A stretch of DNA of 57,308 nucleotides from contig WJOT01000043.1 of the NCBI GenBank assembly GCA_009619095.1, positions 1 to 57,308 of the forward strand, in the 5' to 3' direction. The position numbers and the translations under genes were made by a program. Shown here piece after piece: positions 9,652-46,096 of this stretch; position 1 is the stretch's first letter; every line of letters starts with the position of its first letter. This stretch comes from Clostridia bacterium (lineage in GTDB: Bacteria; UBA6262; WVXT01). The notes below the pieces were generated by a model. The model searched no databases. It was not told the origin of the DNA and worked only from the letters and a program-made list of their open reading frames with translations.

Positions 9652-10625
9652 AAATAGCCGCTATACTTCCACATCTGGAAGTTTTTGGAGGGGTTAGAAG
9701 GTATATCGAGATAGGGAACAATTTTATAAAAAGAGGCCATTCCTTCAGAATCTACCACTCAGATGGAAGTCGTCCCACCTGGCTGGAGTTTTCTGGTGAG
9801 ACAAGACCTGTAGAACAGGTAACTTTAGAAGAGAACGACATTGTAATATCCAGTGATTACTCAGCTGTTCATTACTTAGAAAGAGCCAAGGCAAAGAAGA
9901 AAATTTTCTATTGCCTTCTTGAGCACAAAAACAATCAAAAAGTATGTGTCAATAGAAAATTGCTCGTTATGGGAAACTCTACCGGAATATGTGATATGCT
10001 GAGACGCAAGTATAGGAGAGAATGCATTGAGGGAATTGGTGGGATAAATTCCGAAATATTCCATCCTGTGGAAACAAAGAAGGACAACCACCAGATAAAA
10101 ATTCTCTGTTATGGGAGGATCTACAAAAAGAGGAAAGGAATACAAAAAGTCGTCAAAGCAGTAGAACTGTTAAATAAGAGATATCCTTCTTTAAGGCTCC
10201 TGCTATTCGATACCCCTGTGGGCAATCCTCGACTCGATGCCCGACAAATGCTTCAGAGCAGAGTTCCAGTTACATTTTATACTGCTCTGCCCCAGGAAAG
10301 AATGGCCGAGCTCTACTCTCAAGCAGATATTTTTGTTAGTGCTGAAAAGAGAGCTGGATGGTCCAATCCTTGTGCTGAAGCCATGGCTTGTAAAGTTCCG
10401 GTAGTCTGCTCTCCTTCGGGGACGAGAGATTTTGCTGCCGATGGAGAAACCGCCCTAGTTTTTCGTTTTAGATATCCTTTTCTAATTGCAAAAAAGATAA
10501 GAAGACTAATTGAAGATAAAAATCTAAAAGAGCGGATAACAGAGCAAGGCTATAGGAAAATTCAACAGTATACATGGTCGAATCTCGTGGACAAGTTAGA
10601 AAAAGAATTTAAGCAACTCCTCTAG
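9648..10625 (+). CDS. Glycosyltransferase family 4
   Basis: GGVR N-terminus, KRKG, GWSNPCAEAMAC C-terminal GT-B motif. Confidence 0.85.
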   Translation: MKIAAILPHLEVFGGVRRYIEIGNNFIKRGHSFRIYHSDGSRPTWLEFSGETRPVEQVTLEENDIVISSDYSAVHYLERAKAKKKIFYCLLEHKNNQKVCVNRKLLVMGNSTGICDMLRRKYRRECIEGIGGINSEIFHPVETKKDNHQIKILCYGRIYKKRKGIQKVVKAVELLNKRYPSLRLLLFDTPVGNPRLDARQMLQSRVPVTFYTALPQERMAELYSQADIFVSAEKRAGWSNPCAEAMACKVPVVCSPSGTRDFAADGETALVFRFRYPFLIAKKIRRLIEDKNLKERITEQGYRKIQQYTWSNLVDKLEKEFKQLL

Positions 10626-10626
10626 A

Positions 10627-10719
10627 AAAAAGGGGACAGGCTACTTTTTCGAAAAAAGAGAACTGTCCCTTTTTCGGCGGCGCACAGTGAGGGCAAAAAA
10701 AGTAGCCTGTCCCCTTTTT
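10627..10719. repeat. MITE-like element with 23-bp perfect inverted repeats
   Basis: aaaaaggggacaggctacttttt (10627-10649) and its exact reverse complement (10697-10719); single ends recur near 39457, 39611, 41849. Confidence 0.8.
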
Positions 10720-10730
10720 GAGGAAGGACG

Positions 10731-11822
10731 ATGAGAGTCTGTTTTTTTGGCGGTTATAATCCTAAATATATACGTAATGTAATCATTAAAAAAGGTCTTA
10801 TAAAAAATGGCGTGGAAGTGGTAGAATGCCATACAAAGTCAAAATTTAAATTCTGGCTCAGATATCCCATACTATTCTTTCAACATCTTAAATTTTTTCT
10901 TATAAAATATGACTTTATTTTTGTTCCTGCTTTTCGGCACAAAGATGTTCCTCTGGCCAAGCTTCTGGGACTTTTAACCAATAAGCCTGTAGTTTTTGAC
11001 CCATTAGTTTCCAGATATGAAACTAAAGTTGTCGACCAGAAGAAAGTGGCACCATATTCCATGCAGGCAAGACACAATTTTAGGATAGACAAATTGTCCT
11101 TTAAACTTGCGGACATAGTTCTGGCAGATACCTTTGCTCACGCAGACTATTATGCCAGGGAATTTGGCATAAAGAGAAATAAATTTAGTCGGGTTCCAGT
11201 AGGAGTGCCTGACGAACTTTTTTCTCTATTTAAAACTAGGGGCAAAGAGGAAAATAAAAAAGGAAACAATTTTCTCGTTCAATTTTATGGGTCCTTCCTT
11301 CCCTTGCAGGGAATAGAGCATATTGTGCAAGCAGCCAGGATAGTGGAGACGAAGGATAGGGCCATTCGCTTCGAATTGATAGGCTCGGGGCAGACCTTTC
11401 CTATGATTAAAAAGTTGGCCGAAGAACTGGGATTAAAAAATATAGTTTTACGAGACTGGGTTCCTTTTAACGAGTTACCAGAGGTAGTTTCCCGTGCCCA
11501 CATCTGCCTGGGAATATTCGGGAATACGGAGAAAGCATTGAGGGTAGTTCCTAACAAAGTCTTTCAATGCTTATCTTTAGAGAAGCCTGTAATTACTGGA
11601 AGAACTCCCGCTATTCTCGAATTTTTTGTGGATGGAGAGAACATTTTCCTCTGTGAAGGGGCAGATGCTGACTCTTTAGCCAAAGCAATTATGCTACTAA
11701 AAGATAATGAAGAATTGCGAAAAAAAATAGCCAAAAATGGATATAAATTAATTCAAGAAAACTTTACTTCAGAATTGATTGGCAGGCAAGTAAAAGAAAT
11801 CTTAACTAAGACTTTAGTGTAA
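10731..11822 (+). CDS. Glycosyltransferase family 4
   Basis: YGSFLPLQG, LGIFG, VVPNKVFQ GT-B motifs. Confidence 0.85.
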   Translation: MRVCFFGGYNPKYIRNVIIKKGLIKNGVEVVECHTKSKFKFWLRYPILFFQHLKFFLIKYDFIFVPAFRHKDVPLAKLLGLLTNKPVVFDPLVSRYETKVVDQKKVAPYSMQARHNFRIDKLSFKLADIVLADTFAHADYYAREFGIKRNKFSRVPVGVPDELFSLFKTRGKEENKKGNNFLVQFYGSFLPLQGIEHIVQAARIVETKDRAIRFELIGSGQTFPMIKKLAEELGLKNIVLRDWVPFNELPEVVSRAHICLGIFGNTEKALRVVPNKVFQCLSLEKPVITGRTPAILEFFVDGENIFLCEGADADSLAKAIMLLKDNEELRKKIAKNGYKLIQENFTSELIGRQVKEILTKTLV

Positions 11823-22082: not shown

Positions 22083-22177
22083 TGTAGCCCTTTATGGGCG
22101 CCCCGATTTATCGGGGCGGGCATAAAGCTCCTGGGCGACCATCCCGATGTATCGGGATAAATTGCGGTCGCCCCTAC
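22078..22177. repeat. REP cluster with two nested CCCGAT-ATCGGG hairpins
   Basis: gtagtgtagccctttatgggc-gccccgatttatcggggc (22100-22117); gggcgacc-atcccgatgtatcgggat (22141-22158)-..ggtcgcccctac. Confidence 0.8.
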
Positions 22178-43888: not shown

Positions 43889-44011
43889 GGGCTCAATTCA
43901 TTGAGCCCGTATTGTGGTTTTGAACGCGTAGGGGTCCCGATATATCGGGATGGTCGCCCGGTAGACATTGGTTAGGTTGAAAATATTTGTAGGCACAATT
44001 TCAAATTGCAC
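43884..44011. repeat. REP cluster overlapping the AOR stop
   Basis: tgtaggggctcaattcattgagccc; gtagggg-tcccgatatatcggga (43935-43950)-tggtcgccc; tttgtaggcacaatttcaaattgcac. Confidence 0.75.
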
Positions 44012-44599: not shown

Positions 44600-44661
44600 A
44601 TGCAGAGCAAAGCTCTGCATCTTTGATGAAATCGGCTCTGGAGTCCTCCCGAAAGGGAGGG
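44596..44661. repeat. REP cluster
   Basis: gtagatgcagagcaaagctctgcatct; ctggagtcctcccgaaagggaggg (44638-44661). Confidence 0.75.
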
Positions 44662-44680
44662 TTGATAGAAGGAGGAAACA

Positions 44681-44935
44681 ATGGTCTCTGGGTTGGTTTT
44701 TGTCCGGCTATTATCAGGACATGAAGAAGCTGTTATGGAAGCATTAAGGCAAATTAGTGGAGTCCAGAAAGTTATTGCTGTTTTTGGCCGGTGGGACCTC
44801 GTAGTTAACGTGCAAGTAGGAGATACAGATGAACTTGCCTCGCTTGTGATTAATAAGATAAGGGCAATTCCAGGTACTACCGCAACAGAAACACTAATTA
44901 CCGTAGGACTCAAAAAACCAAAAATTTTCATCTAG
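44681..44935 (+). CDS. Stand-alone Lrp/AsnC ligand-binding (RAM) domain protein
   Basis: VFGRWDLVV..V...DELASLVINKIRAIPGTTATETLI; no HTH; RBS aggagg. Confidence 0.88.
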   Translation: MVSGLVFVRLLSGHEEAVMEALRQISGVQKVIAVFGRWDLVVNVQVGDTDELASLVINKIRAIPGTTATETLITVGLKKPKIFI

Positions 44936-45013
44936 TCACTGTCAGAGCATCCTTTTCCAATCCCGTCCCTGTTTTGGGATGGGGTAGGGCGCTGAAAGTA
45001 GAATAAAATTTTC

Positions 45014-45042
45014 TTGACGTTTTATTTATTTACTAATATAAT
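45014..45042 (+). promoter_or_regulatory. Sigma70 promoter for the tRNA/GIY-YIG transcript
   Basis: TTGACG-17bp-TATAAT, about 30 nt upstream of the first tRNA-like copy. Confidence 0.75.
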
Positions 45043-45071
45043 AAATTCACTCATAGCATAAAAACACAATT

Positions 45072-45128
45072 GGGCCCATAGCTCAGCTGGTTAGAGCATC
45101 CCGATACATATCGGGAGAGTCCTAGGTT
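45072..45128 (+). pseudogene. Truncated tRNA-Ile2 copy with anticodon arm replaced by a CCCGAT hairpin
   Basis: GGGCCCA TA GCTC AGCTGGTTA GAGC A [TCCCGATACATATCGGGA] GAGTC CTAGG TT, then breaks into the GIY-YIG gene. Confidence 0.85.
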
Positions 45129-45132
45129 ATTA

Positions 45133-45387
45133 ATGTTTTACGTATATATATTAAGAAGCCTCAAAGATGGGAGTTATTACGTAGGTAGCACGTCCAAATT
45201 AGGGAAAAGAATACATAGACATAACAAAGGTCATTCCACTTCAACAAAAGGCAAAAAACCTTTAATTTTAGTCTATAAGAAAGAATATAAGCTAAGATCA
45301 GAAGCAGTAAAGGAAGAGAGAAGAATTAAGAGTCAAAAGAGTAGGATATATATTAAAAATTTAATAAAAACACAATTGGGCCCATAG
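45133..45387 (+). CDS. Small GIY-YIG nuclease family protein
   Basis: YVYIL..YYVGST..RIHRHN..EA..EERRIK motifs; about 31% GC by manual count; stop codon lies inside the tRNA gene. Confidence 0.93.
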   Translation: MFYVYILRSLKDGSYYVGSTSKLGKRIHRHNKGHSTSTKGKKPLILVYKKEYKLRSEAVKEERRIKSQKSRIYIKNLIKTQLGP

Positions 45388-45451
45388 CTCAGCTGGTTAG
45401 AGCACCTGACTCATAATCAGGGAGTCCTAGGTTCAAATCCTAGTGGGCCCA
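45378..45451 (+). tRNA. tRNA-Ile2 (CAT anticodon, lysidine type; elongator Met less likely)
   Basis: Full cloverleaf GGGCCCA/TGGGCCC, D-stem GCTC/GAGC, anticodon arm CCTGA-CTCATAA-TCAGG, T arm CTAGG-TTCAAAT-CCTAG; C4:G69 and C5:G68 TilS determinants; CCA not encoded. Confidence 0.95.
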
Positions 45452-45461
45452 TTTTTCATTT

Positions 45462-45537
45462 TAGGCCATAAATTAACTGGTTAGAGCATCCCGATACATA
45501 TCGGGAGAGTCCCCCGATTCATATCGGGGTGGGCCCA
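45462..45537 (+). pseudogene. tRNA-like copy with both anticodon arm and T arm replaced by CCCGAT hairpins
   Basis: taggcca ta aatt aactggtta gagc a [tcccgatacatatcggga] gagtc [ccccgattcatatcgggg] tgggccc a tttt; colinear with the real tRNA. Confidence 0.85.
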
Positions 45538-45856
45538 TTTTTTATTTCCGGTCATCTCTAAAGCTGGAGTCCTCCCGATAGGGAGGCTGACGACCAGAGA
45601 CCTTGCTTTCGCAAGGACTCCCAACCTTCTTGGAGTTCTCCCCGAAAGGTGGTTGTAGTGAGACCGAACTCGAAGAGGAAAAACACAGATATACATTGTG
45701 TAATCGAGAAATATCTCAAGGAGAATATGAAGAATTTAATGGGCTTTGTCAGCATTGTAAAGGAGGCCGATTCAACGAGGATTCCCTTCGCCAAAGGGTT
45801 TTCCGAAGATTTGATAACTGCGAGTTTCTCTTTAAATTTAGCAGAAAGGTGACGGG

Positions 45857-46096
45857 ATGCTTTTAAATGTCAAGGTGATTCCCAATGCCGGAAGGAACGA
45901 AATTAAAAGGGAAGGAAATTGCTGGAAAGTTCACCTGAGGGCACCAGCGGAAAAAGGAAAGGCGAATAAACTTTTGATTAAATTATTCTCTCAAGAATTC
46001 AAAGTGAAAAAGAACCAGATAAAAATAGTTCAGGGAGAAAAATCGAGACACAAAATTGTGCAGATTGGAAAGAACATTAGTGACAGTTGGTTATAA
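45857..46096 (+). CDS. DUF167 (YggU/UPF0235) family protein
   Basis: VKVIPNA, APAEKGKAN, GEKSRHK. Confidence 0.9.
   Translation: MLLNVKVIPNAGRNEIKREGNCWKVHLRAPAEKGKANKLLIKLFSQEFKVKKNQIKIVQGEKSRHKIVQIGKNISDSWL

Follow-up and report, generated by a model that had tools for sequence, protein, structure and literature searches.

Contig WJOT01000043.1 of a Clostridia bacterium carries, at a transfer RNA (tRNA) gene with the anticodon CAT, a compact cassette built around a gene for a small GIY-YIG nuclease. In the cassette, the nuclease gene stands between a hairpin-bearing 5' fragment of the tRNA gene and the intact tRNA with its short flanks, and a hairpin-bearing 3' fragment follows. This three-part layout recurs on many tRNAs and in many phyla, together with breakpoints in the D loop and the T loop and a hairpin at the anticodon position. 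On balance, we lean towards interpreting the unit as a tRNA-gene-associated selfish GIY-YIG cassette, whose flanking tRNA fragments bear a cassette-borne hairpin in the place of an arm; from the comparison of loci we infer cleavage of the tRNA gene, immunity of the fragments and the mode of hairpin installation. The window, i.e. the whole stretch of DNA that was analysed, comprises positions 1 to 57,308 of the contig, and its source genome (G000) has a size of 1.99 Mb in 132 contigs.

Organization of the tRNA locus

The positions of all elements are listed in Table 1. In copy 1, the 5' fragment, tRNA positions 1-26 are followed by the hairpin hp1, GAGTC and CTAGGTT, and the copy ends inside the T loop, with the variable loop and the 5' T-stem strand retained unaltered. 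As the initial annotation had pointed out, the 18-nt hairpin takes exactly the place of the 17-nt anticodon arm and leaves the flanks untouched, which can be read directly from the sequence. The description of copy 3, the 3' fragment, as having exchanged both the anticodon arm and the T arm holds as well: hp1 is followed by GAGTC, the second hairpin hp2, the unchanged 3' acceptor strand TGGGCCCA and the T run. Copy 3 had been annotated from 45462 to 45537; it could be confirmed from about 45477, in the D loop, whereas the tRNA homology of the preceding stretch is not solid, with 45452-45476 being about as similar to the tRNA 5' end as to the ancestral 3' flank. A repeat search placed the three tRNA copies in one family, and the identity to copy 1 was 86 % over 56 nt for copy 3 and 71 % for copy 2. 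Both hairpins fold into 7 base pairs with a 4-nt loop (hp1: -9.1 kcal/mol, hp2: -11.1 kcal/mol).

Table 1. Elements of the tRNA locus and further hairpin copies in the window.
Feature	Position	Strand	Basis or remark
Putative sigma-70-type promoter (TTGACG, 17-nt spacer, TATAAT)	45014..45042	+	11/12 consensus positions
U, 14-nt tRNA 5' flank (leader)	45058..45071	+	exact repeat at 45364-45377; repeat family D1
Copy 1, 5' fragment of the tRNA gene, positions 1 to ~55	45072..45128	+	sequence reading, repeat search
hp1 (TCCCGATACATATCGGGA, 18 nt), substitutes the 17-nt anticodon arm of copy 1	45099..45116	+	
GIY-YIG nuclease gene (84 amino acids), starts 4 bases past copy 1	45133..45387	+	list of open reading frames, Pfam
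U', exact copy of the 14-nt 5' flank, before the intact tRNA	45364..45377	+	
Copy 2, intact tRNA(CAT)	45378..45451	+	Rfam tRNA 75.2 bits; ARAGORN 45377-45452, anticodon CAT
D', diverged copy of the tRNA 3' flank	45452..45476	+	17/25 match 45538-45562 by eye; repeat family D3
Copy 3, 3' fragment of the tRNA gene, D loop to 3' end, anticodon and T arms replaced	45477..45537	+	
hp1, second copy, substitutes the anticodon arm of copy 3	45489..45506	+	
hp2 (CCCCGATTCATATCGGGG), substitutes the 17-nt T arm of copy 3	45512..45529	+	
D, ancestral 3' flank	45538..45562	+	directly 3' of the single tRNA in the empty-site genome G003
Two dispersed hairpin copies	22102..22156		each in the loop of an older palindrome; absent there from G001 and G003
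Dispersed hairpin copy	43936..43949		overlies an older palindrome intact in G003

Transfer RNAs were called with ARAGORN and with the Rfam tRNA model RF00005, the latter at the gathering threshold and, for 44900-45700, at expectation values (E) up to 10. Copy 2 was the sole tRNA found in the window by ARAGORN and the sole match of RF00005. It is probably a tRNA-Ile2, and the genome holds 45 tRNAs, three of them CAT tRNAs. The antisense strand of copy 2 resembles the Plastid-ycf2 family of Rfam (54.2 bits, below the gathering score), which we take to be antisense to trnI-CAU. The idea that copies 1 and 3 are tRNA mimic RNAs, also put forward in the initial annotation, was not borne out. Both copies remained undetected by the tRNA model at E up to 10 and are devoid of the partner strands for the acceptor stem and for the D or T stem, and the minimum-free-energy structure of copy 3 is not a cloverleaf; in it, the two hairpins pair with one another. 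Copies 1 and 3 are pieces of the gene and not proven RNA mimics.

The new loops had furthermore been described as resembling the old ones. This resemblance is visible (CAT in hp1 and TTCA.AT in hp2; by eye, old and new arms have 12 of 17 positions in common for the anticodon arm and 10 of 18 for the T arm), but the meaning attached to it did not stand: it may be coincidental, because cassettes on other tRNAs drop the anticodon from the hairpin loop.

The insert adds 392 nt to the site (466 nt when filled vs 74 nt when empty), and the stop codon of the nuclease gene falls within the 5' end of the intact tRNA. The predicted promoter would be responsible for transcription of everything from copy 1 to copy 3, including the nuclease gene and the intact tRNA; the same sequence also precedes the single tRNA at the empty site of G003. 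Within the insert, the GIY-YIG gene is the only open reading frame (ORF) with a family assignment, and no tyrosine or serine recombinase was present. Two other kinds of element were considered and rejected, an integrase island because there is no integrase among the ORFs of the insert, and a group I intron because Rfam yielded no intron family, either in the window at the gathering threshold or in 44900-45700 at E up to 10.

Empty and filled sites in related genomes

A panel of 30 related genomes was searched for the locus at the DNA level, and the loci were then read. In G003, which belongs to the same genus and has flanks that are 92-97 % identical, and in G002 the site is empty, with one intact tRNA followed directly by flank D. 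Empty and filled loci share the neighbouring Lrp/AsnC-like and DUF167 genes. In G005, copy 1 bears the hairpin and is followed by the nuclease gene, U' and the intact tRNA; copy 3 is absent. In G007, a member of another genus, two tandem copy 1-nuclease units, the second partly masked as N, precede the intact tRNA, a spacer and a copy 3 with both hairpins, which adjoins the 3' flank of G007 itself. Among congeners, the cassette is present or absent at a single conserved site.

The sequence of hp1 is identical in G007 at 18 of 18 positions and in G005 at 17 of 18, with one changed loop base, and hp2 of G007 is a variant with one stem mismatch. Since hp1 is identical in G007 despite synonymous divergence (dS) of 0.58-0.96 in the nuclease gene, the hairpin is conserved far beyond neutral expectation and under constraint, and it was inherited and not written locally.

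Copies 1 and 3 as annotated are backed by independent assemblies, namely by the two metagenome-assembled genomes (MAGs) G005 and G007 with their copy 1-nuclease-tRNA layout and by contigs from sequencing runs; all four runs compared, one of them an RNA run, consist of contigs. Contigs of three other runs span the region from 45088/45093 to 45372/45393 with 0-5 differences, and one contig of run X5 spans copy 3. A loose end in the same run fuses the native T arm directly to flank D, which represents the empty allele in a population. The contigs of the RNA run (n=1) cover 44601-45052 only, i.e. the upstream gene. The contig depth was 17.9, 10.4 and 15.2 for the nuclease gene and ~109, 23 and 180-470 for the upstream gene. 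This lower depth could reflect a mixed population; as the depths sum up other organisms, they were not used as evidence. A weak hint at horizontal transfer comes from the 3' flank of the internal tRNA of G007, where 40 of 49 positions agree by eye with the resident flank in the genus of the window, about 21 of these 40 lying in a genome-wide repeat.

Two genera other than that of the window have only a tRNA(CAT) fragment at the orthologous site. In G008 (L009, G008:C11:780-960) the fragment is cut past the anticodon loop, and in G006 (L012/L106, G006:C1) it begins in the anticodon stem. The intact tRNA(CAT) of G006 is found at a different place and on the other strand, immediately before a more distant GIY-YIG gene.

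The nuclease gene

The Pfam model GIY-YIG (PF01541) covers residues 1-71 of the 84-residue protein (E 6.1e-15, 55.7 bits with a cut-off of 22.6). The only PDB matches at E up to 0.01 were the UPF0213 proteins 1zg2 (E 2.2e-7) and 1ywl (E 3e-7), and proteins of this type are placed among the stand-alone prokaryotic Slx1-like proteins in the available part of a phylogenomic study of GIY-YIG domains (PMC1564403). No NCBIfam model scored above its cut-off; the model for group I intron endonucleases reached 22 bits instead of the required 56, over residues 4-39. In comparison to the orthologues of G005 and G007, the ratio of nonsynonymous to synonymous substitutions (dN/dS) was 0.07-0.19. The gene is therefore under purifying selection and maintained.

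G000 has a second small GIY-YIG gene (C130:9102-9269, L003), with 46-48 % identity over 54-56 alignable residues and no adjacent tRNA. It has copies of a different palindrome family (CCCCACACCAA...; regions C130:8800-9600 and 10600-11000) on its flanks and within its sequence, and an N-terminal GIY-YIG remnant lies within a 12-bp inverted repeat at a distance of ~1.5 kb.

Recurrence of the layout beside homologous nuclease genes

A protein-pattern scan with one genome per species yielded 115 relatives of the nuclease, of which the best 80 were used. They come from Bacteroidota, Ignavibacteriota, Patescibacteria, Planctomycetota, Acidobacteriota, Pseudomonadota and other phyla. Within flanks of ~1.5 kb, 47 of the 80 loci have a tRNA according to ARAGORN, with 53 of the 57 tRNAs on the strand of the nuclease; from the tRNA density of G000 (45 in 1.99 Mb), we estimated a chance expectation of ~7 % of loci. 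The tRNA starts at -24 to +20 nt from the end of the ORF in 13 loci, as it does in the window, and ends at most 70 nt upstream of the start codon in nine. Partial copies of the adjacent tRNA were found with blastn-short on the far side of the ORF, usually 100 % identical in two segments with a gap between them, and this gap is a GC-rich hairpin at the loci that were read. The breakpoints recur, with 5' fragments stopping at the start of the T loop and 3' fragments beginning in the D loop. Tandem arrays are common, as in L020, L024, L027 and L032.

The loci at which a hairpin takes the place of the anticodon arm or interrupts it are L018, L019, L023, L024, L027, L032, L035, L038, L041, L043, L049, L068, L069, G013 and G015. 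The arm-precise replacement that had been annotated in the window was thereby found at other tRNA loci as well (G015, L032, L041, L027 and L019). In G015, the 17-nt anticodon arm of a tRNA-Phe has been exchanged for a 17-nt CCCCGAT...ATCGGGG hairpin in the 5' and 3' fragments alike. L032 contains nine 5' and four 3' fragments of a tRNA-Pro (13 copies), in which the arm is swapped 17 for 17 by a TGGCGCC... hairpin, and the arm is also replaced in L041 and L027 (both tRNA-Pro), L019 (tRNA-Ala) and L069. In G013, a 5' fragment of tRNA-Asp, the nuclease gene and the intact tRNA are followed by a full-length copy bearing a TCCCGAT... hairpin. On various tRNAs, a palindrome has been inserted into the anticodon loop (L023, L068, L049) or neighbouring segments have been replaced (L018, L035, L038, L043).

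These arrangements bear on the idea that the tRNA fragments, transcribed together with the nuclease mRNA from the tRNA promoter, function as RNA, either as processing or stabilising structures or as decoys or antitoxin-like repeats for a tRNA-acting nuclease. Arrays of fragments beside the gene do recall repeat antitoxins, the usual position of the hairpin is 16-50 nt before the start codon or directly past the stop codon, and in the window a single, apparently strong promoter precedes the whole unit. In addition, the full-length hairpin-bearing copy of G013 is scored as a tRNA by ARAGORN, and the accessible part of the GIY-YIG study reports one case in which a Slx1-like domain of prokaryotes is fused to a tRNA methyltransferase of the TrmH type (PMC1564403). 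We nevertheless consider a function as RNA improbable. It is at odds with copies 1 and 3 of the window, with their absent partner strands, their absence from the Rfam matches and the fold of copy 3, and according to the same partial source GIY-YIG enzymes of known function act on DNA (PMC1564403). It also leaves the polymorphism of empty and filled sites and the D-loop and T-loop breakpoints unexplained.

In G037, the hairpin TCCGCCGCAGGCGGA occurs in 17 tandem copies with a period of ~110 nt (C2:236363-238032). The same hairpin replaces part of a tRNA-Arg copy beside the GIY-YIG gene of this genome (L035).

Hairpin types and nuclease phylogeny

Four hairpin families were distinguished at the homologous loci (TCCCG...CGGGA, TCCGC/GC...GG/CCGGA, CCTGCC...GGCAGG and TGGCGC...GCGCCA), and at 26 of the 80 loci one of the four is found no more than 350 nt from the ORF. 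For TCCCG...CGGGA, 29 matches were obtained in 19 of the 80 loci and only 2-13 matches for each of seven control patterns, so the motif of the window is enriched near small GIY-YIG genes. The link to the adjacent GIY-YIG gene that had been proposed at the outset fits these comparative data, which are also compatible with the accompanying suggestion that the products could be element flanks or nuclease-immune targets.

A quick maximum-likelihood tree was calculated from 79 proteins, i.e. the window and 78 loci (L057 with 205 and L087 with 39 amino acids were excluded). The window falls into a clade of 18 rows, with a support of 92 in the Shimodaira-Hasegawa-like approximate likelihood ratio test (SH-aLRT), and 17 of these 18 rows carry a hairpin. 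On the whole tree, which was built on few columns and in which close relatives inflate such contrasts, the hairpin type changes 17 times compared to 23-27 times in 20 printed of 200 label shuffles. The hairpin type follows the nuclease phylogeny; the hairpin is part of the cassette and appears to stay with the nuclease lineage when the tRNA changes.

Dispersed hairpins and older stem-loops

Genomes were searched for the motif CCCGAT-N2-8-ATCGGG, using the pattern read backwards as a control. The window contains nine matches (mean of 0.01 in 100 shuffles) and G000 as a whole 223, compared to three for the backwards control, in agreement with the annotation of the motif as genome-wide. The base before the motif is T in 149 and C in 73 of the 223 cases, and the base after it is A in 154 and G in 67; with a pyrimidine and a purine at the flanking positions, the stem therefore has 7 bp and the 18-nt unit is the full motif. 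Across the copies of G000 the loops are variable and the stems constant.

The other eight genomes of the family of G000 have 28-240 hairpins. More distant carriers are G031 (the genome of L027) with 28, G013 with 24, G033 (the genome of L094) with 19, G018 with 17 and G015 with seven; the small Parcubacteria genome of L029 has one, values of 0-5 were obtained for the other 19 genomes in the panel of relatives, and the pattern read backwards gave 0-3 in the genomes compared. A CCCGA-stem hairpin is present at a GIY-YIG locus in G013, G015, G031 and G033, in G013 with TCGGG instead of ATCGGG as the 3' half. The link is weaker for G018, with five nuclease matches and one hairpin directly beside a tRNA. 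Two of the other families are dispersed as well (CCTGCC: 13-17 vs 0-1; TCCGCC: 5-30 vs 0-6).

Four hairpins are located in the 23S rRNA gene of G000, which has 3090 nt compared to 2925 positions of the model. An alignment with 11 other genomes places them at variable helix tips, which are related in G003 and G008 and unrelated or shorter in other lineages. G000 and G003 differ at 28 of the 3090 nt, and 10 of the 28 differences are in or beside the four tips. They include two paired changes, CCCGAT/ATCGGG vs CCCGAC/GTCGGG and CCCGAT/ATCGGG vs CCTGAT/ATCAGG. As G008 agrees with G003 in the first case, it is G000 that moved towards the motif.

Four intergenic sites of G000 were compared with sister genomes. 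At two of them the hairpin of G000 occupies the loop of an older palindrome, which is kept in G001 and G003 with a loop of 3 or 8 nt. At the third site, a palindrome that G003 has in intact form has lost 10 nt (5' strand and loop), and 16 nt of hairpin stand in their place, and at the fourth the hairpin lies within a composite insertion of ~75 nt. Conversion among repeats is an alternative route to these differences, since several composites are themselves repeated. A process that rewrites stem-loops, as postulated in the initial annotation, is in accordance with the hairpins found in or over older stem-loops in this comparison; it does not account for the hairpins of the tRNA locus, which are inherited, and the process as such is one that we infer.

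A different reading regards the hairpin as the primary mobile unit and as the cognate site of the nuclease, in a partnership of the REP/RAYT type with a GIY-YIG enzyme replacing the HUH transposase. A structure-specific nuclease of the Slx1-like kind would then act on hairpin or cruciform DNA and install the hairpin in stem-loops, with tRNA arms, rRNA helix tips and palindromes as targets, and the tRNA fragments would merely be the sites nearest to the gene. In a broader version, the nuclease and its cognate hairpin (TCCCG.../...CGGGA and sister families) might form an unrecognised cross-phylum mobile system that overwrites stem-loops. The nuclease would perhaps recognise stem-loop DNA, with tRNA genes as first targets and the system duplicating the gene in order to survive. 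Finally, this system may have spread genome-wide in some lineages, to rRNA tips and palindromes, as a GIY-YIG counterpart of REP/RAYT that rewrites genes for structured RNAs. We see each of these propositions as possible but rather doubtful.

This reading draws on the co-occurrence of the dispersed hairpin with the cassette (G000 and its family, G013, G015, G031 and G033, with G018 as the weaker case), on the likewise dispersed CCTGCC and TCCGCC families, on the hairpins of G000 in or over palindromes that are intact in G001 and G003, and on the four 23S helix tips with one paired change towards the motif. A further point in its favour are nuclease ORFs within long inverted repeats, two at C130 of G000 and one each at L037 and L029. 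On the other hand, G001, G003 and G008 hold 28-83 hairpins with no detectable match to this nuclease, and G021 has three nuclease matches and zero CCCGAT hairpins. Several of the sites in G000 are part of larger repeated composites, so that gene conversion could explain the differences between sisters. Moreover, the hairpins at the tRNA locus are old and inherited, with no fresh insertions, and no target-site signature was found.

At L029 (L029:1280-1900, a Parcubacteria MAG), the GIY-YIG ORF is situated within a 23S rRNA gene, between inverted repeats of 20 nt, an arrangement that resembles an ORF-bearing intervening sequence, with a TCCCGAT hairpin at a helix tip ~150 nt upstream.

HUH/RAYT transposases were tested as the agent of dispersal and rejected. 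G000 has 11 matches to PF01797 (Y1_Tnp), and eight of the nine loci examined are free of a CCCGA hairpin within 900 nt, while one has one such hairpin; the Y1 transposases may serve other repeat families of G000. In yet another explanation, a local tandem tRNA duplication decayed, a lineage-specific REP-like hairpin invaded the dead copies and the GIY-YIG gene is an unrelated passenger. G000 is indeed rich in nested palindromic repeats besides its IS200/RAYT-type transposases, and the vicinity of tRNAs is generally enriched in its hairpins, with 11 of the 223 no more than 150 nt away from a tRNA compared to 1.6 expected by coverage, a contrast confounded by the shared intergenic location. But the same architecture, with hairpins at the same tRNA position, beside homologous nucleases on other tRNAs in unrelated phyla largely refutes such a coincidence. 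Further points against it are the hairpin type, which tracks the nuclease phylogeny, the scarcity of the hairpin at the Y1 loci and the retained tRNA segments, which are unaltered, unlike decayed sequence. We regard it as very unlikely.

Proposed course of events

For the selfish cassette that we favour, the following sequence of steps would fit the comparison. The nuclease would break the intact tRNA gene, and cleavage or recognition is probably located at or near the anticodon arm, because this part is always replaced or interrupted; in the window the T loop is affected, too. Repair would proceed by recombination on a cassette-bearing template, with the conserved tRNA segments on either side serving as homology. 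Such repair would copy the nuclease gene and leave overlapping partial duplicates of the tRNA, and if it took place out of register, tandem arrays could arise. By removing the native arm, the hairpin module would render the flanking fragments uncuttable as well as non-functional as tRNA, and it would shorten the homology by which the cassette could be deleted. The intact tRNA would be retained because it is essential.

Several observations weigh against this course of events. The greatest obstacle is the unaltered tRNA that the carrier keeps, which does not differ from the presumed target. Arm replacement therefore provides incomplete self-immunity, as the intact essential tRNA should remain a target. 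Site-specific homing endonucleases normally carry a DNA-binding domain, and here no such additional domain was found, the catalytic domain filling residues 1-71 of 84. At 33 of the 80 loci ARAGORN detected no tRNA in the flanks, and 52 of the 79 rows of the tree carry none of the four hairpin families. An arm-precise swap is present in only about half of the loci that were read, the hairpin being in the anticodon loop or the D region elsewhere, and the 3' fragment of G015 retains its T arm, so removal of the T loop is not general. The genomes G001, G003 and G008, in which hairpins are present and a match to the nuclease is not, are 92-96 % complete; dispersal therefore needs no resident copy of the gene now. 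Finally, related genomes are not independent (L017 is a contig identical to G007:C44), and MAG assemblies near repeats may be erroneous.

Relation to known systems

Among described elements, the cassette is closest in setting to SegB, a free-standing GIY-YIG homing endonuclease of the tRNA gene cluster in phages T4 and T6 (PMC2330249, available in part). According to the accessible sections of a further report, SegB cuts within tRNA genes and shows a statistical association with tRNAs of many isotypes, and tandem amplification of the tRNA plus segB results from its action as a nuclease together with homologous recombination (PMC13096335). Like SegB, the cassette has a GIY-YIG catalytic domain encoded among tRNA genes, and in our own comparison the preferred motif of SegB, as given in the part available, resembles the conserved T-loop sequence. 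In contrast to the cassette, with its 84-amino-acid catalytic domain on bacterial chromosomes, the partial sources describe SegB as phage-borne and longer, with a C-terminal part whose truncation alters the effect. Hairpin-substituted tRNA fragments and a dispersed cognate hairpin are not described for SegB in the sections at hand (PMC2330249, PMC13096335). Measured against Seg-like elements, the cassette shows the GIY-YIG domain and presence or absence at a conserved site, but not the added DNA-binding domain.

With the UPF0213/Slx1-like proteins, the protein of the window shares the single domain, the size class of 80-110 amino acids and the best matches among solved structures. The prokaryotic Slx1-like family is characterised, in the part of the study available, by vertical inheritance and a predicted function in repair, and no link to tRNA genes, partial tRNAs or hairpins is mentioned there; a C-terminal Asn is given as typical of the UvrC/homing endonuclease lineage (PMC1564403).

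The CCCGAT hairpin is similar to REP/REPIN sequences in several respects described in the accessible text on these repeats, as they are short palindromes scattered outside genes, with copy numbers from tens to hundreds, nested composites and a single-copy enzyme gene (PMC3116915). RAYT is an HUH Y1 enzyme flanked by its own REPs (PMC3116915, same part), whereas the hairpin-flanked gene is here a GIY-YIG gene. Of the hallmarks of the REP/RAYT system, the many dispersed palindromes are present (223 vs 3) and an HUH Y1 gene flanked by the repeat is not. Small dispersed repeats of cyanobacteria, hairpins of 21-27 nt, were reportedly described by Elhai and colleagues in 2008 as lying in or replacing stem-loops, including those of structural RNA genes. 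They are said to differ in sequence and lineage and to have no associated enzyme, and we treat them, as the closest parallel for hairpins in place of stem-loops, as a lead only.

Integrase-borne islands at tRNA genes are bounded by attL and attR repeats of the 3' part of the tRNA. They are like the cassette in targeting a tRNA gene, restoring an intact tRNA and leaving a partial copy at the far end. The cassette differs from them in having no integrase, only 392 extra nt with one 84-amino-acid ORF, fragments whose overlap reaches from the D loop as far as the T loop, and rewritten arms.

In the open-access and bioRxiv literature, we found no account of small GIY-YIG genes in bacteria that are accompanied by hairpin-substituted tRNA fragments or by a cognate hairpin in dispersed copies, which agrees with the view of the initial annotation that no named system has this signature. 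A free-standing GIY-YIG element at tRNA genes is of a known kind; there is a real chance that the cassette is a hairpin-installing system of a new kind. To our knowledge, small genes of the 'GIY-YIG nuclease family' are annotated in very large numbers with no known role. If our interpretation is correct, the tRNA cassette would give this subfamily a biology and could account for much of what appears in bacterial genomes and MAGs as incomplete or unusual tRNA calls and as tandem arrays of tRNA fragments. It would also extend the principle known from SegB, cutting of tRNA genes and amplification by recombination, from phages to chromosomes across phyla, with the hairpin substitution as a compact, recognisable and searchable signature. 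If the hairpin is the cognate site, a new route would exist for short palindromes to spread and to overwrite helices of tRNA and rRNA genes, and a very small structure- or sequence-directed nuclease would be worth characterising.

Additional repeats at the locus and in the source genome

The tRNA locus of the window is bracketed by a different repeat family (GGAGTCC TCCC-GAAA/GATA-GGGAGG ... GGACTCC) at 44636-44662, 45565-45600 and 45630-45650. Spurious skips of ~935-940 in the joints of metagenome contigs stem from the presence of this repeat at both 44640-44660 and 45565-45600. Just 3' of the cassette, an ORF of 87 amino acids (45603-45866) with four Cys and no Pfam match overlaps repeat-rich sequence and may be no gene.

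Further repeats associated with tRNAs are found elsewhere in G000. Three regions involve no ORF (C37:1200-1500, C78:28200-28450 and C18:51540-51920; locus L004). A tRNA-Trp and a tRNA-Gln are each followed by an insert of 130-180 nt that is bounded by a direct repeat of the tRNA 3' end, and the two inserts have a common GC-rich core. In the case of tRNA-Gly(CCC), the leader and positions 1-52 are duplicated upstream and positions 53-73 are repeated downstream. Upstream of a tRNA-Arg/Lys/Leu cluster (C45:40600-41200, L002), about five tandem units of ~140 nt each consist of a TCCCGA...TCGGGA hairpin followed by a conserved AT-rich block, and the last hairpin ends 5 nt before the tRNA. A direct duplication of ~2.16 kb (C6:22430-25223) contains tRNA-Ser(CGA) and tRNA-Arg(GCG), and in front of each of the duplicated tRNA-Arg genes stands the same palindrome, in which a CCCGAT hairpin is nested.

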